DNA of 43,878 nt from a virus (Duplodnaviria > Heunggongvirae > Uroviricota > Caudoviricetes), in IMG/VR virus record IMGVR_UViG_2778261538_000001, one strand, 5' to 3'. Shown here in pieces: positions 5,767 to 21,944 of this stretch (position 1 is the stretch's first letter; each line of letters begins with the position of its first letter). The position numbers and the translations under genes were made by a program. The notes beneath the pieces are model-generated. The model had not been told where the DNA came from. It saw only the letters and a list, made by a program, of their open reading frames with translations, and ran no database searches.

Positions 5767-6510
5767 TTACAAATACTTTACATTTACCGCTATAAGAGAA
5801 TAATCGTCAGTCGGGCCTTTTGTCTCTATTCTTCGCATTAGGCTGGAGGCAAACCTTGATGCGGTTGACAATGTACGGTAAGAAAATCGTGGGCGTTGCT
5901 CCCAAAAGGTATGCGCGCCATCAGACATGATGAATAGAGATAGAACACCATCGTCAAGAGGAAGTTCATCTTTATCAATATTTATGACTTGATGTTGAAG
6001 GGGGATCTTGGCAGCAAGTGCAGTTGTAATAATATTTTTACCTTTTGCATTTTTGAGCTGTCGAGCTGTATAAATACCGCTATCTATCAACATTTGATGT
6101 TGAGTATGATCTGTTGTTAATTGGATTAGCTTATTTCCATTTTTTAAATAAACACGACAGTCACCTACATGTATAATTGTTAGACCTTGATTGTGAAGTA
6201 GGCACATTGTTAAAGTTGTAGCAGCAGATGCTAATTCTTTATCAACTGACGAAAGAGATGCCACCTTTTCTTGTAGGGTCTTAAGTAAGGATAAGACATT
6301 GTCTTCATGAGTGAAGCTGTCTTTAATACTATACAAATGATTTATTACTGCTGCAGATGCTTCTTTTCCTCCTTTATAACCACCAACCCCATCAGCTATA
6401 GCCATAAGATAACCATTTGGTGTTTGAAGTGGATAAAGCACGCTATCTTGATTTTCCCTGCCATTATGTTTTGGTACAGAAAATATGGATGATGAGAGTA
6501 TGCTAATCAT
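5767..6510 (-). CDS. PP2C-family Ser/Thr protein phosphatase, 247 aa
   Basis: Motifs AIADGVGG, HVGDCRVY and FIMSDGAH in the translation; overlaps kinase stop by 4 nt; AT-rich. Confidence 0.8.
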   Translation of the reverse strand: MISILSSSIFSVPKHNGRENQDSVLYPLQTPNGYLMAIADGVGGYKGGKEASAAVINHLYSIKDSFTHEDNVLSLLKTLQEKVASLSSVDKELASAATTLTMCLLHNQGLTIIHVGDCRVYLKNGNKLIQLTTDHTQHQMLIDSGIYTARQLKNAKGKNIITTALAAKIPLQHQVINIDKDELPLDDGVLSLFIMSDGAHTFWEQRPRFSYRTLSTASRFASSLMRRIETKGPTDDYSLIAVNVKYL

Positions 6511-7232
6511 AAGCGTTTCAACTCCAATTCCTCAAAGATCTGCTCTACGGTCAGGAATCTTTTGTTAAGTTGTCTATGCGTACATTTGTTTATTATATCA
6601 TCAAAACCATCAATATTTAATTCTTCAATTAAAATACCAATTGAATATATATCTGATTGTTTTGAATATCCGTTGAGGAAAACGTTGTAATCAAAGTATT
6701 TAGGAGTAGCGGGGTATTGGCCAATTTGTGTTAATAGCTGTGTATTGGCATCTGGTGACACATTTTTTGCAAGGCCGAAGTCAGATAACTTATAAATTCC
6801 ATCTTTAAATTTTAGTACATTTAGTGGTTTTATATCCCGATGAAGATATCCTTTCTTATGAATCCATCCGACGGCATTTAGTACCATTTTTACAATAGAG
6901 ATTTTTTCAGCCTTTGTAAGAGTTCCACTTTTTATTTCTTCTTCAAGATTTGTTTCTGCTAGTTCCATTACGAACCAAGGCTGAGCATTCTGTAAGTGGC
7001 ATATGAATATTTGGACAATATTAGTATGCAGGCATTCAGTTTGATATCTTACTTCTCGTTCAAATCTGGTAAAGAGTTCAGGATCTGTTGCATCAGGTCG
7101 TAAAATTTTTCTGGCATATAGACCACAAATTTTTCTTTGTGAGTTATATAACCTTATTTTTTCTACAAGGCCAAAACCGCCAGAACCAATTACTTCTAGG
7201 GGTTCTATTAGGTAATTCCCACGTTCTTCCAT
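6507..7232 (-). CDS. Minimal Hanks-type Ser/Thr protein kinase, 241 aa
   Basis: Gly-rich loop GSGGFG, conserved Lys (YARK), catalytic loop HRDIKPLN, DFG motif (LSDFGLAK); AT-rich; directly downstream of cI. Confidence 0.85.
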   Translation of the reverse strand: MEERGNYLIEPLEVIGSGGFGLVEKIRLYNSQRKICGLYARKILRPDATDPELFTRFEREVRYQTECLHTNIVQIFICHLQNAQPWFVMELAETNLEEEIKSGTLTKAEKISIVKMVLNAVGWIHKKGYLHRDIKPLNVLKFKDGIYKLSDFGLAKNVSPDANTQLLTQIGQYPATPKYFDYNVFLNGYSKQSDIYSIGILIEELNIDGFDDIINKCTHRQLNKRFLTVEQIFEELELKRL

Positions 7233-9977: not shown

Positions 9978-10675
9978 AAAACATCGCCGCACAGATGATT
10001 AACTTTGACCGTGAGCAGATGCGCCGGATCGCCAACAACATGCCGGAACAGTACGACGAAAAGCCGCAGGTACAGCAGGTAGCGCAGATAATCAACGGTG
10101 TATTCAGCCAGTTACTGGCAACTTTCCCGGCGAGCCTGGCTAATCGTGACCAGAACGAACTGAACGAAATCCGCCGCCAGTGGGTTCTGGCTTTCCGGGA
10201 AAACGGGATCACCACGATGGAACAGGTGAGCGCCGGAATGCGTGTTGCCCGTCGGCAGAATAGACCATTTCTGCCATCACCCGGGCAGTTTGTTGCATGG
10301 TGCCGGGAAGAAGCATCCGTTACCGCCGGGCTGCCAAACGTCAGCGAGCTGGTTGATATGGTTTACGAGTATTGCCGGAAGCGTGGTCTGTATCCGGATG
10401 CAGAGTCTTATCCGTGGAAATCAAACGCGCACTACTGGCTGGTTACCAACCTGTATCAGAACATGCGGGCCAATGCGTTGACTGACGCGGAATTACGGCG
10501 CAAGGCTGCCGATGAACTGTCCTGTATGACCGCGCGAATTAACCGTGGTGAGGCGATACCTGAACCAGTAAAACAACTTCCTGTCATGGGCGGTAGACCT
10601 CTAAATCGTGCACAGGCTCTGGCGAAGATCGCAGAAATCAAAGCTAAGTTTGGGCTGAAAGGAGCAAGTGTATGA
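9974..10675 (+). CDS. P: Replication protein P (DnaB loader), 233 aa
   Basis: Translation MKNIAAQMINFDREQMRRIANNMPEQYDEKPQVQQVAQIINGV... matches lambda P nearly identically. Confidence 0.97.
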   Translation: MKNIAAQMINFDREQMRRIANNMPEQYDEKPQVQQVAQIINGVFSQLLATFPASLANRDQNELNEIRRQWVLAFRENGITTMEQVSAGMRVARRQNRPFLPSPGQFVAWCREEASVTAGLPNVSELVDMVYEYCRKRGLYPDAESYPWKSNAHYWLVTNLYQNMRANALTDAELRRKAADELSCMTARINRGEAIPEPVKQLPVMGGRPLNRAQALAKIAEIKAKFGLKGASV

Positions 10676-10974
10676 CGGGCAAAGAGGCAATTATTCATTA
10701 CTTGGGGACTCATAAGAACTTCTGTGCGCAGGACGTTGCCGCGGTAACAGGCGCAACCGTAACCAGCATAAATCAGGCTGCGGCTAAAATGGCGCGGGCA
10801 GGAATCCTGGTCGTTGATGGTAAGGTCTGGCGAACGGTGTATTATCGGTTCGCTACCAGAGAAGAATGGGAAGGAAAGGTGAGCACGAATTTGATTTTTA
10901 AGGAGTGTCGCCAGAGTGCCGCGATGAAACGGGTATTGAGGGTATATAAAAGAACATCAATGGGTACACAATGA
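10672..10974 (+). CDS. ren: Ren, 100 aa
   Basis: Translation MTGKEAIIHYLGTH... matches lambda Ren over most of its length. Confidence 0.88.
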   Translation: MTGKEAIIHYLGTHKNFCAQDVAAVTGATVTSINQAAAKMARAGILVVDGKVWRTVYYRFATREEWEGKVSTNLIFKECRQSAAMKRVLRVYKRTSMGTQ

Positions 10975-11041
10975 TGAAACAGGTGAGTTGAGTTCAAACT
11001 GTAGTACAATTCTCTCCAGTTTGAACAGGAAAGAATATGCT

Positions 11042-11374
11042 ATGAATCCTTATATTTATCTTGGTGGTGCAATACTTGCAGAGGTCATTGGTACAACCTT
11101 AATGAAGTTTTCAGAAGGTTTTACACGGTTATGGCCATCTGTTGGTACAATTATTTGTTATTGTGCATCATTCTGGTTATTAGCTCAGACGCTGGCTTAT
11201 ATTCCTACAGGGATTGCTTATGCTATCTGGTCAGGAGTCGGTATTGTCCTGATTAGCTTACTATCATGGGGATTTTTCGGCCAACGGTTGGACCTGCCAG
11301 CCATTATAGGCATGATGTTGATTTGTGCCGGTGTGTTGGTTATTAATTTATTGTCACGAAGCACACCACATTAA
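11042..11374 (+). CDS. emrE: SMR-family multidrug efflux transporter EmrE, 110 aa
   Basis: Translation from MNPYIYLGGAILAEVIGTTLMKFSEGFTRLWPSVGT... matches E. coli EmrE; start chosen at ATG 11042. Confidence 0.93.
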   Translation: MNPYIYLGGAILAEVIGTTLMKFSEGFTRLWPSVGTIICYCASFWLLAQTLAYIPTGIAYAIWSGVGIVLISLLSWGFFGQRLDLPAIIGMMLICAGVLVINLLSRSTPH

Positions 11375-11629
11375 AAATAATTTGTTTTTAAACGACTAAA
11401 ATATGGAGGCTCGTATATTTATATGGGCCTCGTTTTATGCTTTTTGTTAATGTCTTTAGTTTTTATTCATTCTTTTGTGCTTTCAAGATTATGGTGTAAG
11501 AAAATTGCAATACGATTATTGTTGTATATTCAAGATAATGTGACCTTAATTGTCTTTTTAAATAAAAATTAAACAAAAATCATATCTCACCACTAAGGTT
11601 TATAAAAGCATACTTTAGCAGGTGTCACC

Positions 11630-13156
11630 ATGAAAAAAGCCATAGCATATATGCGATTTTCATCACCAGGTCAGATGTCTGGTGATTCATTAAACCGCCA
11701 GAGAAGGCTTATTACTGAATGGCTAAAGGTAAATAGTGATTATTACCTTGATACCGTAACGTATGAAGATTTGGGGTTAAGCGCATTCAATGGAAAGCAT
11801 GCACAATCAGGAGCTTTTTCGGAATTTTTAGATGCTATAGAACATGGTTATATATTGCCAGGGACTACATTGTTAGTTGAAAGTCTGGACAGACTTTCAA
11901 GAGAAAAAGTCGGTGAAGCGATTGAGCGTCTGAAATTGATTTTGAATCACGGTATTGATGTTATAACTCTTTGCGATAATACAGTCTATAATATTGACTC
12001 ATTGAATGAGCCATATTCATTAATAAAAGCCATACTTATAGCACAAAGGGCAAATGAAGAAAGCGAGATAAAGTCAAGTCGGGTTAAATTATCATGGAAG
12101 AAAAAACGGCAGGATGCACTGGAGTCAGGCACGATTATGACGGCTTCTTGTCCGAGATGGCTCTCATTGGATGACAAAAGAACGGCTTTTGTTCCAGACC
12201 CCGACAGGGTGAAAACTATTGAGCTAATTTTTAAACTCAGGATGGAAAGGCGCTCATTGAATGCAATAGCCAAGTATTTAAATGATCATGCTGTAAAGAA
12301 TTTCTCAGGAAAAGAAAGTGCATGGGGACCTTCTGTAATTGAAAAATTATTAGCGAATAAAGCTCTGATAGGTATATGCGTACCTTCATATCGTGCAAGA
12401 GGCAAAGGGATAAGTGAAATCGCTGGCTATTATCCCAGAGTCATATCAGATGATTTGTTTTACGCTGTACAGGAAATTCGGTTGGCACCTTTTGGTATTA
12501 GCAATAGTAGCAAGAATCCTATGCTAATAAATCTACTTCGAACAGTTATGAAGTGTGAGGCTTGTGGTAATACCATGATTGTTCATGCGGTATCTGGAAG
12601 TTTGCATGGCTATTATGTTTGTCCGATGAGAAGATTACATCGATGTGACAGACCATCAATAAAAAGAGATTTGGTTGATTATAATATCATTAATGAATTG
12701 CTTTTTAATTGTAGCAAAATTCAACCAGTTGAAAACAAGAAAGATGCTAATGAAACTTTAGAGTTAAAAATTATTGAGCTTCAGATGAAAATTAATAATT
12801 TAATCGTTGCATTGTCTGTCGCGCCTGAAGTTACCGCTATAGCAGAGAAAATAAGACTATTAGATAAGGAATTACGAAGGGCTTCGGTATCATTAAAAAC
12901 TTTGAAGAGTAAAGGGATGAGTTCACTTGGTGATTTTCATGCTATTGATTTAACCAGTAAAAATGGGCGAGAGCTATGTCGTACACTTGCCTATAAAATA
13001 TTCGAAAAAATTATAATTAATACAGATAATAAAACCTGTGATATCTATTTTATGAATGGCATTGTTTTTAAACACTATCCTTTAATGAAAGTAATATCCG
13101 CCCAGCAGGCGATAAGTACTCTTAAATATATGGTTGATGGTGAGATTTATTTTTGA
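11630..13156 (+). CDS. Large serine recombinase (resolvase/invertase catalytic domain plus recombinase and zinc-ribbon domains), 508 aa; YbcK-like
   Basis: N-terminal YMRFSSPGQ catalytic-serine motif; Cys cluster CEACGN...YYVCPMRRLHRCD; very AT-rich. Confidence 0.8.
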   Translation: MKKAIAYMRFSSPGQMSGDSLNRQRRLITEWLKVNSDYYLDTVTYEDLGLSAFNGKHAQSGAFSEFLDAIEHGYILPGTTLLVESLDRLSREKVGEAIERLKLILNHGIDVITLCDNTVYNIDSLNEPYSLIKAILIAQRANEESEIKSSRVKLSWKKKRQDALESGTIMTASCPRWLSLDDKRTAFVPDPDRVKTIELIFKLRMERRSLNAIAKYLNDHAVKNFSGKESAWGPSVIEKLLANKALIGICVPSYRARGKGISEIAGYYPRVISDDLFYAVQEIRLAPFGISNSSKNPMLINLLRTVMKCEACGNTMIVHAVSGSLHGYYVCPMRRLHRCDRPSIKRDLVDYNIINELLFNCSKIQPVENKKDANETLELKIIELQMKINNLIVALSVAPEVTAIAEKIRLLDKELRRASVSLKTLKSKGMSSLGDFHAIDLTSKNGRELCRTLAYKIFEKIIINTDNKTCDIYFMNGIVFKHYPLMKVISAQQAISTLKYMVDGEIYF

Positions 13157-13478
13157 GTAATAATCACTTTTTCAACCGTGCTATGGTATGAAAGTAAAGT
13201 AACTAATATGATATTAACTATCTTGAACGAAGCGCCCTGAGCTATAGTTTTACTATAGGCACTGCCACTGGATGTTGGCATTCTTGCTCTAGTAGCTCAA
13301 CAATACCCAATCACAAAACAATTCACTGATAACAAACTTTGTGCACGTGCTTGGTTATGGCGAACAGGTGATGTTAACCTCTTGCCTGAATGCCACTCCA
13401 CTTCATTAAGTATCTGAGCACCGAGAGGCTGGTCACGCCCCCATTAAAAATAATTTCTTTTGAATCGAGTGAAATAGG

Positions 13479-13505
13479 TTAGCCCGCATAAGTGCGGGCT
13501 GCTTT
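13479..13505 (+). terminator. Stem-loop terminator (AGCCCGCA-taag-TGCGGGCT then GCTTTTT)
   Basis: Perfect 8-bp stem with T-run on the plus strand; abuts the 3' end of the minus-strand esterase gene. Confidence 0.5.
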
Positions 13506-14549
13506 TTACAGGTCAGCGTTTGTTTTTTGTTGTTGGGTAGCGGTTTTTATGGGGGTTCCCAGGTTTTTAGTAAACCACTCAACAACTCTGTTTATAATAA
13601 TTGGCTGATACCATGTATTATCGCCATGCTCAGCCCCTTCTACCAGAACGTACTCAGCGTTATCGCCGTTCTTCTTCAACATCCTGAATAGTTTGGCGCT
13701 TTGCTCAGGTGAAACCAGAGTGTCTTTGCTACCATGCATAATAAGAAATGGGGGTTTTACTCCTTTCATATGTCCGATTGGACTGGCGTTTAGCGCTTTT
13801 TCTTTTGACGCTGTTATGGGGGCTCCCGCAAAACTTCTGAATGCAGGGCCATTGATCATTAAGGCTTCGGTTACGGCAGGAGATCGATGAACCTCCTGCA
13901 CTGATTCAGGGAACCCCTCGCCAATATTCAACAAGTCAGAAATCCCATAAAGTGTGGCAACTGCCTGAACATCTGCTGATTGCTGAAGAAAGTCACCTTT
14001 ATTAAAGGTTTTGTCACCATTTGTAGTTCCCATCATCTGGGCAAGCCATCCACCGGCAGAGTCACCCAGAACTCCGATTCTTTGAGGATCAATCCCATAA
14101 TCGCTGGCATGTTCTCTCAAGTAACGTATTGCAGCTTTCCCATCCTCAACTGGTGCTGGAAATGTATCAGGAATTGTTCTGTATTCTACAGCGGCCACAA
14201 CAAAACCAGCTTCAGCCAGAGCCATTCTCATTTCAATAAATTTGTCATGTTCAGAAGACATGAATCCGCCGCCGGGATAATAAATAATGGCTGGTTTTAA
14301 ATCATTTGTTCGCGGGACAAGAACTGACATGTGAAGCTGTCTGACAGAACGAGTTCCTTTTATCTGGGAATAAACAACATCACCAATGAGATCGACCTGG
14401 TTTCTGGTGGGTGAAACACTAATGATATCTGCACCCGGGGTGTAACCAGGAAGATTAGTCTGGACAGGTGTTGCACAACTCCCGACCGACATGGCCATTG
14501 ACATACCATACAATAGTGTTGCAGATGATAATATCTTGTTAATTTTCAT
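13506..14549 (-). CDS. Secreted alpha/beta-hydrolase (esterase/lipase family) with N-terminal signal peptide, 347 aa
   Basis: GDSAGG nucleophile elbow, YYPGGGF oxyanion-hole-like motif, hydrophobic N-terminus ending ...SVGSC (possible lipobox). Confidence 0.8.
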   Translation of the reverse strand: MKINKILSSATLLYGMSMAMSVGSCATPVQTNLPGYTPGADIISVSPTRNQVDLIGDVVYSQIKGTRSVRQLHMSVLVPRTNDLKPAIIYYPGGGFMSSEHDKFIEMRMALAEAGFVVAAVEYRTIPDTFPAPVEDGKAAIRYLREHASDYGIDPQRIGVLGDSAGGWLAQMMGTTNGDKTFNKGDFLQQSADVQAVATLYGISDLLNIGEGFPESVQEVHRSPAVTEALMINGPAFRSFAGAPITASKEKALNASPIGHMKGVKPPFLIMHGSKDTLVSPEQSAKLFRMLKKNGDNAEYVLVEGAEHGDNTWYQPIIINRVVEWFTKNLGTPIKTATQQQKTNADL

Positions 14550-14996
14550 GTTTTACATGCCTTGACTTATCGGATGAAATTCTCTTACTGAATTTAACGG
14601 CAGTTTAATAGCAGTACAACTCGTGGTAGCTAGGGAAATATCCCAGTCGTGGTTAAGGTTGTACTTGACGGCTATTATTTCAACAATGCTTAAAGTGAGA
14701 GCTTAAGGTTATGCGTATGTTTTACAGTCCGAGTAGATTCTGACCAATAGCTTCTTTGTATAATTCTGTCAGAAATAAATCTTGGCTTGCATGAAGTTTG
14801 AGACCTTATCTTGTTTGATTATGAATAATCAATTCGCCATAATTGTATCACCGGAGCCTGAACAACTCCTGTGACTTCTGCGCTAAACGGGGACGTTTAT
14901 GCGCACATACAATCCAACCTATCTTCTCCATTCACAGATGCAGAAATGCACCTGCGATTTTTTGCATCCAGCGTTTGGCCTCTGCGGAGGTGAATC

Positions 14997-15452
14997 GTGA
15001 ACCTCCCACAAGATGGCATCAAATTGCATCGCGGCAACTTCACCGCTTTCGGCCAGCAGATCCAGCCTTATCTGGAGGACGGAAAATGCTTTCGCATGGT
15101 GCTTAAACCGTGGCGTGAGAAACGCAGTCTTTCCCAGAATGCACTCAGCCATATGTGGTACAGCGAAATCAGTGAATACCTCATCAGCAGGGGGAAATCG
15201 TTCGCTACCGCAGCATGGGTAAAAGATGCTCTCAAACACACATACCTCGGTTATGAAACCAAGGACCTGGTTGATGTCGTAACCGGCGAAATCACTACTA
15301 TCCAGTCGTTACGCCATACCTCCGATCTTGATACCGGAGAGATGTATGTCTTCCTGTGTAAGGTTGAAGCTTGGGCGATGAATATTGGCTGCCACCTGAC
15401 TATTCCGCAGCGCTGCGAGTTCCAGCTGCTGCGCGACAAGCAGGAGGCGTAA
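14997..15452 (+). CDS. NinB-family recombination protein (YbcN-like), 151 aa, GTG start
   Basis: Translation [15 protein letters not shown]... matches DLP12 YbcN as I recall it; GGAGG RBS at 14986. Confidence 0.75.
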
Positions 15453-15622
15453 TGGCTACACCGCTTATTCGTATCATGAACGGACACATCTACAAAGTAC
15501 CAAATCGTCGTAAGCGTAAACCTGAGCTGAAGCCATCCGAAATACCAACACTGCTCGGGTATACCGCCAGCCTGGTTGATAAAAAATGGTTGCGACTGGC
15601 AGCAAGGAGGAATCATGGCTGA
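15452..15622 (+). CDS. ninE: NinE, 56 aa
   Basis: Translation [37 protein letters not shown]...; ATG overlaps the preceding stop. Confidence 0.8.
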   Translation: MATPLIRIMNGHIYKVPNRRKRKPELKPSEIPTLLGYTASLVDKKWLRLAARRNHG

Positions 15623-15905
15623 TTTGAGAAAAGCAGCGCGTGGTCGGGAATGCCAGGTAAGAATCCCTGGCGTATGTAATGGCAATCCTGAAACGTCAGT
15701 ACTGGCACATATCCGGCTGGCTGGATTGTGCGGTACCGGTATCAAACCGCCAGACCTGATTGCCACCATTGCATGTTCTGCCTGCCACGACGAAATCGAC
15801 CGTCGCACGCATTTTGTTGACGCTGGATATGCAAAAGAATGCGCGCTGGAAGGTATGGCGAGAACACAGGTTATCTGGTTGAAAGAGGGGGTTATTGAGG
15901 CGTGA
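15615..15905 (+). CDS. YbcO-like protein (DUF1364; putative nuclease), 96 aa
   Basis: Translation [35 protein letters not shown]...; AGGAGG RBS at 15605. Confidence 0.8.
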
Positions 15906-16264
15906 ATACCTACAGCATCACATTACCTTGGCCTCCGAGCAATAATCGCTATTACCGCCATAATCGTGGGCGCACGCACGTCAGCGCAGAGGGGCAGGCA
16001 TACTGCGATAACGTCGCCCGAATCATTAAAAACGCAATGCTGGATATCGGCTTGGCTATGCCAGTGAAAATCCGTATTGAGTGCCACATGCCGGATCGCC
16101 GTCGCCGTGACCTGGATAATCTGCAAAAAGCCGCTTTTGACGCACTCACCAAAGCAGGTTTCTGGCTGGATGATGTTCAGGTCGTTGATTACCGTGTTGT
16201 GAAGATGCCCGTTACCAAAGGTGGGAAGCTGGAGCTGACCATCACCGAACTGGGAGATGAATGA
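15902..16264 (+). CDS. rusA: RusA Holliday-junction resolvase, 120 aa
   Basis: Translation [18 protein letters not shown]... is the characteristic RusA N-terminus. Confidence 0.9.
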
Positions 16265-17058: not shown

Positions 17059-18141
17059 TTAGAACTGATAAACCAGACCTACAGCGACGATGTCGTCGGT
17101 ATCAATACCAGCTGTTTTGGTAAACTTACTATCGTCAATTAAGTTGATTTTGTAATCAACAAAAGTGGACATGTTTTTATTAAAGTAGTAAGTAGCACCG
17201 ACATCGACATACTTGACTAAGTCTCGGTCACCATGAACACCAAGGTCTTTACCTTTTGACTGAAGGTAAGCAACAGATGGTCGCAGACCGAAGTCAAACT
17301 GATATTGTGCTACTGCTTCAAAGTTTTGTGCTTTGTTTGCAATATGGTTATTACCAAAAACGGTCATATTCTGAGTTTCAGAATATGTGGTAGCCAGATA
17401 GATATTGTTCGCATCATATTTCAGGCCTGCAGCCCATACTTCCGCATTTTTGCCGGAGGCATTGAATTTGCTCTTACCATAGGCGACCTGACCGTCAGTG
17501 CGATCTGATTTAGCATAGGTTGCACCCACGCCGAATCCTTCATACTCATAAGTAGTGGAGAAACCGAAACCATCACCATTGGCTTCAGTTACGTCAGTGC
17601 GGTCATTTTTACCCTGATACTGAGCAGCAAAGTTCAGGCCATCGACCAGACCAAAGAAGTCGTTGTTACGATAAGTTGCAACACCAGTAGTGCGACCAGT
17701 CATGAACACATCTGTTTGGGTCCAGGTATCACCACCGAATTCTGGCAGGACGTCAGTCCACGCACCGATGTCGTATGCTACACCGTAGTTACGGCCGTAA
17801 TCGATTGAGCCGTAATCACCAAATTTCAGGCCTGCAAATGCAAGACGGGTTTTGTCTTTGGAAGAACCTTGAGATTCAGCACGGTTGCCTTTGAATTCAT
17901 ATTCCCACTGACCGAAACCAGTCAGTTGATCGTTGATTTGGGTTTCACCTTTGAAGCCAAGACGGGCATAAGTAGTATCACCATCATCTGCATCATTAGA
18001 GGAGAAGTAGTGCTTGGCATTAACTTTCCCGTATAGATCCAGCTTGTTACTGTCTTTATTATAAATTTCAGCTGCCTGAGCAGACATCGCCATCAGTACT
18101 GATGCAGCTACAGCAGAAATTGCCACTGTTAATTTTTTCAT
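17059..18141 (-). CDS. nmpC: OmpC/OmpF-family general porin (NmpC/Lc type), intact, with signal peptide, 360 aa
   Basis: Signal peptide ending [12 protein letters not shown]-terminal ...VGLVYQF terminal Phe, typical 16-strand porin; antisense to late operon. Confidence 0.93.
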
Positions 18142-20314: not shown

Positions 20315-20935
20315 ATGAAAGATCAAGATGTTAGGTTCGCGGTGCATCATAAGCTTTTGAAAGAATCGCATTTAGATCCAGACTGTCTTGTGGTCGATGA
20401 ATTTTCCATATCCCTTGGCGCCAGTAGAGCAGACATTGCTGTAATAAATGGTGTTATACACGGGTACGAGCTCAAAAGTGAATATGACTCTTTGGAGCGT
20501 TTGCCTCTTCAAATCAAGCATTATTCTTCTGTAATGGACAAGGTTACTCTTGTCGTAGCTGAGAAACACCTTGAGGGAGCATTAAAGTTAATCCCAGGTT
20601 GGTGGGGCGTTAAAACGGTTTCTGTTGGGCCAAAAGGCGCCATTCTTATAAAGCACATGCGTGGAGAAAAGCTTAATCGAAACCATGACACATTGATGCT
20701 CGCTCAATTGCTTTGGAAAGATGAATGTATCGACGTACTTGAACGATGGGGCTATTCCAAAGGAATCAAAAGCAAGCCCCGATTTGAGTTATGGAATATT
20801 ATTGCGGAAAATATTCCAATAGCGAATCTCAGGCTTGAAGTCAGAACAGCCTTAAAGAAACGCGTAGGCTGGAAAGTTAAGGCTTGGCAGGCTGAGTCTG
20901 CGCCAACCAATAAAGCTGTCTCACGACTAACGTAA
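20315..20935 (+). CDS. PD-(D/E)xK-like protein (possibly sce7726 family), 206 aa
   Basis: Motif VVDEF...RADIAV...GYELKSE (D...D...E-x-K) in the N-terminal half; AT-rich; convergent with and overlapping its partner. Confidence 0.6.
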   Translation: MKDQDVRFAVHHKLLKESHLDPDCLVVDEFSISLGASRADIAVINGVIHGYELKSEYDSLERLPLQIKHYSSVMDKVTLVVAEKHLEGALKLIPGWWGVKTVSVGPKGAILIKHMRGEKLNRNHDTLMLAQLLWKDECIDVLERWGYSKGIKSKPRFELWNIIAENIPIANLRLEVRTALKKRVGWKVKAWQAESAPTNKAVSRLT

Positions 20936-21944
20936 TATGGTGCGTATGTGCAACTTTACGCCATTCTTTAGAGCCGCCAGATTTGTTAGCGCCTAATGAT
21001 CTTTGGTAAATGTAATCATCCCCCCAACTAAATTTGGAGCCAAAGACTTGATACTCTGGCGAACTAACAAGGGTAGTACATAAGTTTTTAGTTTGGCCCC
21101 ATCCATTTCCTTTAACTGCGGTACCTTTTACAAAGATCCATGAGGTATCGTTCGAATATCTCACTGAGACATACTGAGACATGAAGCGTGGGTCTACGCT
21201 CGTAATGGTAGAGCTAGCGGTGGGATAATCACTAAAACTTGGCGTTCTTCCATTGCTAAAATTCTGTACTACGTACATCCAAAGATCGTATTCATGGCGC
21301 GGAATATGATGAACTTGATGTTGCGGTATCCCTGCCTGTGATGCCGGGTATGCGGTTGAAGATAAAATCAAGTTTCTCCACGGAGCTTGGCCTGATAATG
21401 TGTTGACCATGCTTAATGCTTGTTGTTTTAAACTATCAGTTGCGTTTTGAATATCTCCAAAATCAATGATTACATCAATTAAACTAGGATGAATATTTAA
21501 GTGGTTAACCAGACTTGTGAATTGGTGCCATGTCTGGGGGGTGATAGATATAGCGAGCCCATTGATTAAGTTGCGTTGAACAGCATGTATATAGTTTGTT
21601 GAATATGCGGGAGAAACAACAGGGATAATTTCCTTACCATTTACTCTAGCATCTTGGATACACATATCTAGAGGATGATGGCGGCTCGAACCATGTTTAT
21701 CTAAATATTTAACATCCAGCAAAACAGGACGATTGGCTTTCCAGGATGCCGCAAGGTTAATACCGAAGTCAGATAAGTAAGAACTCAAACTCTTCTTGTA
21801 GCATTCGTTTTCATAATCCCAGTCTATGTCTGGAATGGTAATGATCGGAGTAAAACCAGAGAGCGTAGTTTGATCTAAAAGCATCAGAGATTCATATTCA
21901 GCAGGCTTCCATTTCAGCTGTGGATAATATTGATGTTGACTCAT
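20877..21944 (-). CDS. Uncharacterised 355-aa protein, partner of the PD-(D/E)xK-like gene (possibly sce7725 / beta-protein family)
   Basis: Long AT-rich ORF convergent with 20315..20935, 59-nt 3' overlap; no catalytic motif recognised. Confidence 0.6.
   Translation of the reverse strand: MSQHQYYPQLKWKPAEYESLMLLDQTTLSGFTPIITIPDIDWDYENECYKKSLSSYLSDFGINLAASWKANRPVLLDVKYLDKHGSSRHHPLDMCIQDARVNGKEIIPVVSPAYSTNYIHAVQRNLINGLAISITPQTWHQFTSLVNHLNIHPSLIDVIIDFGDIQNATDSLKQQALSMVNTLSGQAPWRNLILSSTAYPASQAGIPQHQVHHIPRHEYDLWMYVVQNFSNGRTPSFSDYPTASSTITSVDPRFMSQYVSVRYSNDTSWIFVKGTAVKGNGWGQTKNLCTTLVSSPEYQVFGSKFSWGDDYIYQRSLGANKSGGSKEWRKVAHTHHITLVVRQLYWLAQTQPAKP

Follow-up and report, generated by a model that had tools for sequence, protein, structure and literature searches.

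A probable accessory-gene slot between ren and ybcN in a DLP12-type lambdoid prophage of Escherichia coli

Lambdoid phages carry accessory genes (morons) in the nin region, between the replication genes and ninB. In the mosaicism typical of these phages (Hendrix-type), module edges are sharp and lie at gene or promoter borders, and terminators occur in the path from pR to Q. Phage lambda itself has only a bare spacer of 73 bp between ren and ninB. In DLP12, the cryptic prophage located at argU in Escherichia coli K-12 MG1655 (NC_000913), the order is renD-emrE-ylcJ-ybcK-ybcL-ybcM-ylcH-ybcN. Here, we analysed the corresponding interval (positions 10975-14996) in IMG/VR record IMGVR_UViG_2778261538_000001, a stretch of 43,878 nt that represents a complete lambdoid prophage. 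This whole stretch is called the window, and all coordinates are window positions. Unlike lambda, the prophage has accessory genes between ren and the ninB-like gene ybcN, namely the efflux gene emrE, the small gene ylcJ, the large serine recombinase gene ybcK and a hydrolase gene on the opposite strand (Table 1); module edges and terminators are arranged as in other lambdoid mosaics. Because ren and ninB nearly adjoin in lambda, the extra DNA is truly present in this prophage. Positions 10600-15500 are 100% identical to E. coli DETEC-P881, in which the prophage adjoins icd, behind a tyrosine integrase.

The arrangement is already known: it is common, has annotations in both RefSeq and phage records, and is carried by working phages. 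Our analysis adds the exact module boundaries, a relic emrE tail and the probable substrate class of the hydrolase, an esterase. Nothing in the results challenges the present view of lambdoid mosaicism.

The accessory-gene slot and its modules

Our comparison indicated that the interval is very probably a hypervariable moron slot of DLP12-type lambdoid phages, built by ordinary mosaic recombination. The initial annotation had described it as a single inserted island of about 4 kb. Its gene content was correct: emrE, a serine recombinase gene of 508 aa and a convergent hydrolase gene all lie between ren and the NinB-like gene where it placed them, and lambda ren is indeed followed directly by ninB. 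The feature list was extended here by ylcJ, ylcH, a decayed fragment of a Rha/P22AR-C gene, and the relic emrE tail with its terminator. The interval is also more AT-rich than its neighbours, as had been noticed, with a GC content of 38.9% compared with 49.8% for the whole window and 50-51% for the flanking backbone (O-P and ybcN-rusA). GC content is uneven between the parts, however: 40.5% in emrE, 27% in the emrE-ybcK spacer, 35.8% in ybcK and 44.3% in the hydrolase gene. This unevenness argues against a single origin.

The comparison with K-12 led to the same result. The initial annotation had named the combination of emrE with a YbcK-like recombinase as the DLP12 arrangement, and it was recovered in the same order (emrE-ylcJ-ybcK): positions 10761-13165, which include the 3' part of ren, emrE, ylcJ and ybcK, match K-12 DLP12 with 97.2% identity over 2405 nt. 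Homology restarts at 14814 (95%) and continues through ylcH, ybcN, ninE, ybcO, rusA, quuD and the porin gene nmpC. Thus, the part that differs from DLP12 is limited to about 1.6 kb (from approximately 13166 or 13230 to 14813), and no homology was found between 13166-14813 and ybcL-ybcM. K-12 has a 1.85-kb ybcL-ybcM segment at this position, whereas this prophage has the Rha-like fragment, the emrE tail and the opposite-strand hydrolase gene; the hydrolase is therefore foreign to K-12 DLP12, as the initial annotation had suspected. The two prophages also differ in that IS3 in ren and IS5 in nmpC are present in K-12 DLP12 and absent here, and in that this prophage is complete and located at icd. 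Its nmpC/OmpD-type porin gene (17059-18141, minus strand) is intact and encodes 360 aa; the K-12 copy is broken by IS5.

We then determined how often the parts occur among 5426 complete E. coli genomes, in which the block and the cassette were counted at a coverage of at least 80%. The emrE-ylcJ-ybcK block was found in 1399 genomes and the hydrolase cassette in 668, and the entire arrangement was present in 172. Although absent from K-12 DLP12, the hydrolase is no oddity: it frequently occupies this slot, and it is carried by 8 deposited phage records, which correspond to about 7 phages (4A7 was deposited twice).

Uniform content across the DLP12-like prophages, with the hydrolase as a normal resident, would have contradicted the initial annotation, but the slot differs from genome to genome. 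In O157:H7, ren-emrE-ybcK is separated from ylcH by 254 bp that hold no cargo gene. EC93 has a small Rha/P22AR-C gene and a hypothetical gene after ybcK. EC17CM13 lacks ybcK and has a hypothetical gene of 436 aa behind ren and emrE, and in DG342-2 two small genes follow ren. In ST131 prophages, which lack ren, emrE and ybcK, P is followed by an inverse autotransporter gene of 4.3 kb, the hydrolase gene, ylcH and ybcN. The ST131 variant shares the cassette, its orientation and its right boundary with the window; the match starts at 13502, with 97.4% identity over 13502-15501 and 97.9% over the cassette itself. In ST131 strain 2017_APHA (locus L004, 3703-7968), the inverse autotransporter gene of 4266 bp takes the position of ren, emrE and ybcK and lies directly upstream of the esterase gene. 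Genes annotated as HEPN, NADAR/phosphoribosyltransferase-like and GNAT were found in the slot elsewhere. The ren-ybcN junction can thus be regarded as a hot slot for cargo swaps, with ybcL-ybcM, the esterase, the inverse autotransporter, HEPN, NADAR and GNAT genes among its contents.

The module emrE also occurs outside the slot. Many E. coli genomes (about 2,280) have a chromosomal fliE-emrE-ybcL-ybcM locus without ybcK, and its emrE homology covers exactly 10965-11382. The emrE-ybcL-ybcM segment at fliE is about 91% identical to the DLP12 copies and is followed by an IS200 element and gene fragments (FORC_029, locus L007, 6001-7937); it looks like a domesticated prophage remnant. Since emrE, the ylcJ-ybcK block and the hydrolase cassette were each found without the others, they are not one inserted island.

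The two borders of the cargo behave differently. On the right, six cargo contexts share one and the same boundary at 14814, which coincides with the promoter-like sequence TTGATT-17-CATAAT. The left border varies: homology extends to 13222 in O157, to about 13165-13195 in K-12 (and weakly to about 13230), and to 13434 in EC93. Among the left and right cassette boundaries of four to six architectures, no common motif beyond TATC was found.

An interval-wide search found no repeats at both ends of 10975-14996, so that the whole-island view gains no support from flanking repeats. The single notable repeat, D1, is a direct repeat of 52 nt with 77% identity (11366-11417 and 13439-13490; the copies are 2073 bp apart). 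Copy 1 is the end of emrE with its intrinsic terminator (11406-11431), and copy 2 consists of the last 10 nt or so of an emrE and a different intrinsic terminator (13480-13501). When one genome per species was searched, Escherichia sp. MOD1-EC7003 proved to have a locus without ybcK; its emrE is intact, is convergent with and abuts the hydrolase gene, and is followed by the copy-2 sequence. Its matches to the window are 11041-11403 and 13439-14791, and the 38-nt overlap between them is the D1 repeat. The MOD1-EC7003 locus is a prophage remnant, bordered by a BioB-/BioA-type gene pair and by genes with domains of the pectinesterase and aconitase families, which we take from the K-12 map to be bioB/bioA and ybhC/ybhJ, that is, the att-lambda neighbourhood. 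D1 was also considered as a recombinase or attachment (att) site and was rejected on the emrE-tail alignments, the terminator scan and the MOD1-EC7003 locus, all of which identify it as a relic emrE tail with its terminator. Judged from these alignments, D1 is a leftover emrE tail and terminator that would have moved with the hydrolase gene, and the relic tail shows that the predicted esterase gene formerly adjoined emrE.

These observations suggest how the arrangement may have been assembled. It contains at least four modules with separate histories: emrE; ylcJ-ybcK with about 70 bp of 3' flank; the dead Rha-like fragment; and the hydrolase cassette with the emrE tail (about 10 nt) and terminator. 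Positions 13230-13434 are colinear with the Rha-like gene of EC93 but contain stop codons and are cut at 13434. The switch from EC93-like to MOD1-EC7003-like sequence lies at 13434-13438, with CAC microhomology, inside this pseudogene. The arrangement is most simply explained by one illegitimate join between two phages at this point. The left parent would have been an EC93-like phage (ren-emrE-ylcJ-ybcK-rha'), and the right parent a phage in which emrE abutted the hydrolase gene, followed by ylcH-ybcN, and which would have contributed everything from the emrE tail onward. The product would have been viable and would then have spread via lysogeny and by homologous exchange through the conserved flanks.

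Some points weigh against this explanation. The reverse direction is conceivable: MOD1-EC7003 could have arisen when an ancestor resembling the window lost the DNA between the two copies of the repeat, and its single repeat copy is a hybrid of the left and right ones. The ybcK block starts after the same 9 nt or so past the emrE stop in both the ybcL-ybcM and the hydrolase backgrounds, and it ends within about 25 nt of an emrE stop-proximal position. Such a coincidence of the block ends could hint at a preferred site.

The phages that carry the cassette give a further line of comparison. It is 98.7-98.8% identical in Lambda_4C10, 4A7, D2, 1W, 3W, PhiR47_2 and Perceval, and the record of Lambda_4C10 is annotated with the identical order ren-emrE-ybcK-hydrolase-ybcN. 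All seven, including the inducible Bievrevirus phages Lambda_4C10 and 4A7 (LR595861, LR595864), differ from the window only by point substitutions and in other genome modules. Phage bv_4C10 is inducible and plaque-forming (bioRxiv 10.64898/2026.05.26.727859), and Mathieu et al. (PMC6969025) reported EmrE in two of these lambdas. Thus, a drug and biocide efflux gene and the gene of a predicted exported esterase travel together on viable, inducible temperate coliphages.

The efflux gene encodes a full-length SMR protein. PF00893 covers residues 3-94, the membrane-embedded Glu14 is present in MNPYIYLGGAILAE, and the protein differs from K-12 EmrE by one amino acid. It is predicted to act as a proton-coupled efflux pump for quaternary cations. 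The dN/dS ratios were 0.009-0.1 for emrE, 0.08-0.09 for ybcK (against the K-12, O157 and EC93 alleles) and about 0.11-0.19 for the hydrolase gene in the more diverged pairs, with values up to 0.45 between its two closest copies. These values indicate that all three genes are under purifying selection. In E. coli O104:H4 (NZ_CP064387, 1958307-1959439), an apparent deletion joins part of emrE to the 3' region of ybcK that encodes the zinc ribbon, and the emrE-ylcJ-ybcK block appears to be decaying in this lineage.

The predicted exported esterase

The protein encoded opposite to ybcK is probably an exported, lipid-anchored serine esterase. It matches the BD-FAE family PF20434 with 151 bits (cut-off 26.8), and its phage protein family, PHROG 3341, is labelled esterase. 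The closest matches in the Protein Data Bank (PDB) are a metagenomic lipase (6nkf, 1e-36), a bifunctional GH43-CE enzyme (6mly) and an acetyl xylan esterase (6xyc). With these BD-FAE/family IV (HSL-like) carbohydrate and feruloyl esterases it shares the fold family, the nucleophile elbow, the oxyanion loop and the catalytic triad: GGG at 93-95, Ser164 in the GDSAG elbow, Asp276 and His308 are conserved in all full-length homologues that were aligned. It differs from them in having a signal peptide with a lipobox-like VGSC, and its identity to the solved structures is only partial. Signal peptides were found in all homologues; those of E. coli end in VGSC or STGC, and those of Pantoea and Erwinia have an AIA-S cleavage site. 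The VGSC and STGC endings suggest lipidation at Cys25.

Relatives with 64-76% protein identity are found on Pantoea plasmids and in Erwinia, Pectobacterium and Enterobacter soli, and more distant ones (about 45%) in Selenomonas. A phenolic acid decarboxylase gene adjoins the homologues on E. coli plasmid pSCU-105-1, in Erwinia tracheiphila and in a Selenomonas metagenome-assembled genome (MAG). These neighbours suggest that the hydrolase probably frees hydroxycinnamic acids from esters. Hydroxycinnamoyl esters (feruloyl or chlorogenate-type) or acetyl esters would thus be the most likely substrates. The gene is present in 12% of the complete E. coli genomes, including ST131, and the enzyme may act on dietary hydroxycinnamate esters. 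No paper describing this prophage esterase was found. A homologue with 73% identity is present in Escherichia phage PHB10 (MK524177; locus L009, 3940-8800), where its neighbours are annotated as aromatic alcohol reductase, gluconolactonase and amidohydrolase, an unusually metabolic cargo for a phage record.

Several points count against a metabolic role of this kind. The substrate assignment rests on the family and on the neighbourhood in 3 of about 10 homologue loci, and the copies in E. coli prophages have no decarboxylase partner. The promoter scan found no convincing sigma-70 match and no above-chance promoter upstream of the gene, so that expression from the lysogen can only be presumed. 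For the region as a whole, the test for own promoters of morons found 12 promoter-like matches, against 13.1 expected from shuffled sequences.

The hydrolase could instead serve the phage rather than benefit the host as a metabolic esterase; it might, for instance, remove acetyl groups from a surface receptor and so help superinfection exclusion or release. Viable phages carry the gene, its phage protein family has the annotation esterase, and the protein is predicted to be exported and probably anchored in the envelope; according to Mathieu et al. (PMC6969025), lambda morons are mostly membrane proteins. This role is nevertheless unlikely, given that the gene is kept in a degraded prophage remnant, lies outside the tail and lysis modules and is transcribed against the early operon. 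Its nearest relatives outside phages are encoded on plasmids and chromosomes of Enterobacterales associated with plants and in Selenomonas, in several cases next to a phenolic acid decarboxylase gene, and the structures related to it are those of lipases and of carbohydrate, feruloyl and acetyl-xylan esterases.

The recombinase YbcK

Large serine recombinases are known as phage integrases of the phiC31, Bxb1 and A118 class. YbcK shares their three-domain architecture and catalytic motifs. Matches to PF00239, PF07508 and PF13408 are all above the cut-offs, the motifs Y-M-R9-F-S11 and E-S-L-D87-R88-L-S-R91 are intact, and the reading frame contains zero internal stops. Unlike the genes of these integrases, ybcK lies inside the nin region, in a prophage with a tyrosine integrase of its own at icd. 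The gene is strongly conserved and occurs in 26% of the complete E. coli genomes. A PDB sequence search with YbcK found nothing at E ≤ 1e-3, and PADLOC defence models gave no matches to ybcK, the hydrolase gene or emrE. In the literature, ybcK was found only in omics lists or in a sabinene-tolerance study, and nothing was found on its mechanism.

Full-length homologues with 41-61% identity are present in Atlantibacter, Yersinia, Erwinia, Ewingella, Kluyvera, Citrobacter and Pantoea. Several of them lie at the tail-fibre end of prophages beside host DNA, one next to ssrA, a location that would suit a prophage integrase. The Pantoea dispersa homologue lies in a nin region, as ybcK does here. No att site for YbcK was identified, and the flanks of the homologues from seven other genera share no conserved non-coding site. 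In Citrobacter koseri (locus L029, 5145-8530), a homologue with 49% identity lies on a conjugative element with TraD and MobA and is divergent beside a gene with a faint, sub-threshold Pfam match to Shufflon_N. Classical shufflons use a tyrosine recombinase, so that this pairing with a serine recombinase is unusual.

The possibility that the recombinase excises or inverts the segment, raised in the initial annotation, found no echo in the genomes. Each of the 172 full-length matches is one colinear piece, a single orientation was seen in them, in ST131, in the phage records and in MOD1-EC7003, and no polymorphism of orientation or excision could be attributed to YbcK. The orientation of the hydrolase gene relative to ylcH-ybcN is constant (ST131, Lambda_4C10), and in MOD1-EC7003, which has no ylcH-ybcN, the gene is convergent with emrE. 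The only inverted repeats in the interval are short, AT-rich and at chance level. As far as its reading frame and context can tell, ybcK is an intact internal orphan recombinase gene, and nothing found here links it to the rearrangements.

We also considered whether the ylcJ-ybcK block (about 2.07 kb) is a self-mobile element that YbcK inserts at the emrE terminator, with the 52-nt repeats as attachment sites. The direct repeats flank the block at a distance of 2073 bp, single-copy "empty" configurations were seen with two different downstream cargos, the intact ybcK evolves under purifying selection, and members of its family are placed like integrases at prophage ends. All this is compatible with mobility, but copy 2 of the repeat contains both target halves (emrE tail and terminator), which would not be expected from integration by a serine recombinase. 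The right end is not conserved either, being a break in the Rha-like pseudogene (13434) in the window and unrelated sequence in K-12, where homology is lost after about 13195. Moreover, ybcK was not seen apart from emrE in 45 entries sampled from the 3891 matching E. coli genomes; emrE was always on its left, so that there is no second target, and the distant homologues have no conserved site in their flanks. Self-mobility of the block is thus very unlikely.

More generally, the YbcK-family recombinases in lambdoid nin regions (E. coli, Pantoea) might be active and exchange or capture cargo at a site about 40-70 bp past their own stop codon (around the palindrome at 13203-13215) or at the emrE terminator, but we regard this as highly improbable. 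If it were true, the slot would be a cassette site serviced by a recombinase and not a passive mosaic joint. A more specific form, in which YbcK captures or inverts the downstream cargo like an integron or a shufflon, is barely credible: although four different contents begin at about 13195-13230, directly past ybcK (about 70 bp after its stop), near the small AT-rich palindrome TAATATGATATTA, and the C. koseri homologue adjoins the gene with the faint Shufflon_N match, prophages without ybcK have an equally variable slot, the cassette borders share nothing but TATC, one orientation only was found throughout, and the inverted repeats do not exceed chance. Ordinary mosaic recombination remains the preferred explanation for the variable slot.

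Feature coordinates and other cargo of the prophage

The features of the interval and its flanks are listed in Table 1. Both strong plus-strand terminators in the region belong to emrE sequences, one after the intact gene and one after the relic tail. The match of ybcN to PF05772 (23.1 bits) is slightly below the cut-off. An Rfam scan of 10000-16000 at E ≤ 1 gave zero matches. The hairpin ahead of ylcH has a 9-bp stem, GTCACCGGAG...CTCCGGTGAC in relatives, with one mismatch in this window.

Table 1. Features in and around the ren-ybcN interval (window positions; dot, no strand assigned)
Feature	Position	Strand	Evidence or remark
ren	10672-10974	+	PHROG 142 Ren-like exclusion protein, E 1.3e-41; "protein ren" in related genomes; left backbone flank of the slot
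emrE module	10965-11383	+	CDS 11042-11374, 110 aa, SMR efflux pump; PF00893, E 2e-35
Intrinsic terminator 3' of emrE	11406-11431	+	Terminator scan: 11-bp stem, then T tail; within repeat copy 1
ylcJ, 49-aa small open reading frame (ORF)	11423-11572	+	PF23688 YlcJ-like, E 1.9e-30; annotated in K-12 and in the identical RefSeq record
ybcK, 508-aa large serine recombinase	11630-13156	+	Resolvase + Recombinase + Zn_ribbon_recom; PHROG 95 integrase, E 6e-120
ybcK-linked 3' flank	13157-13229	.	Lineages diverge in downstream cargo from its end
Decayed Rha/P22AR C-terminal-domain gene fragment (pseudogene)	13230-13434	+	Match to annotated P22AR-C genes of many E. coli prophages; stops in frame
Relic emrE 3' end (about 10 nt) and own intrinsic terminator (13480-13501)	13439-13505	+	Repeat copy 2; terminator scan
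Exported alpha/beta hydrolase, 347 aa, BD-FAE-type esterase (predicted)	13506-14549	-	PF20434, E 3e-44; convergent with ybcK
Hydrolase upstream region and cassette right end	14550-14813	-	MOD1-EC7003 cassette homology stops at 14791; K-12/O157/EC93 backbone homology from 14814
Conserved backbone start	14815-14874	+	Promoter-like TTGATT-17-CATAAT (14815-14843), then hairpin 14848-14874; promoter scan
ylcH small ORF	14899-15000	+	Annotated in K-12 and in the identical RefSeq record; no Pfam match
ybcN (NinB/Orf-like), right backbone flank	14997-15452	+	PHROG 72, E 3.6e-52; annotated DNA base-flipping protein YbcN

Cargo was also observed elsewhere in the prophage. In the immunity region, just upstream of the repressor gene, the minus strand carries overlapping genes for a PP2C-type phosphatase (5767-6510) and a Ser/Thr protein kinase (6507-7232), and the pair could act in phage exclusion or signalling. 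Between the lysis genes and nohD (20315-21944), there are a gene of the "sce7726 family" on the plus strand and a PF14350 "Beta protein" gene on the minus strand. This site is another slot with swapped cargo, since K-12 DLP12 has bor/ybcV there.

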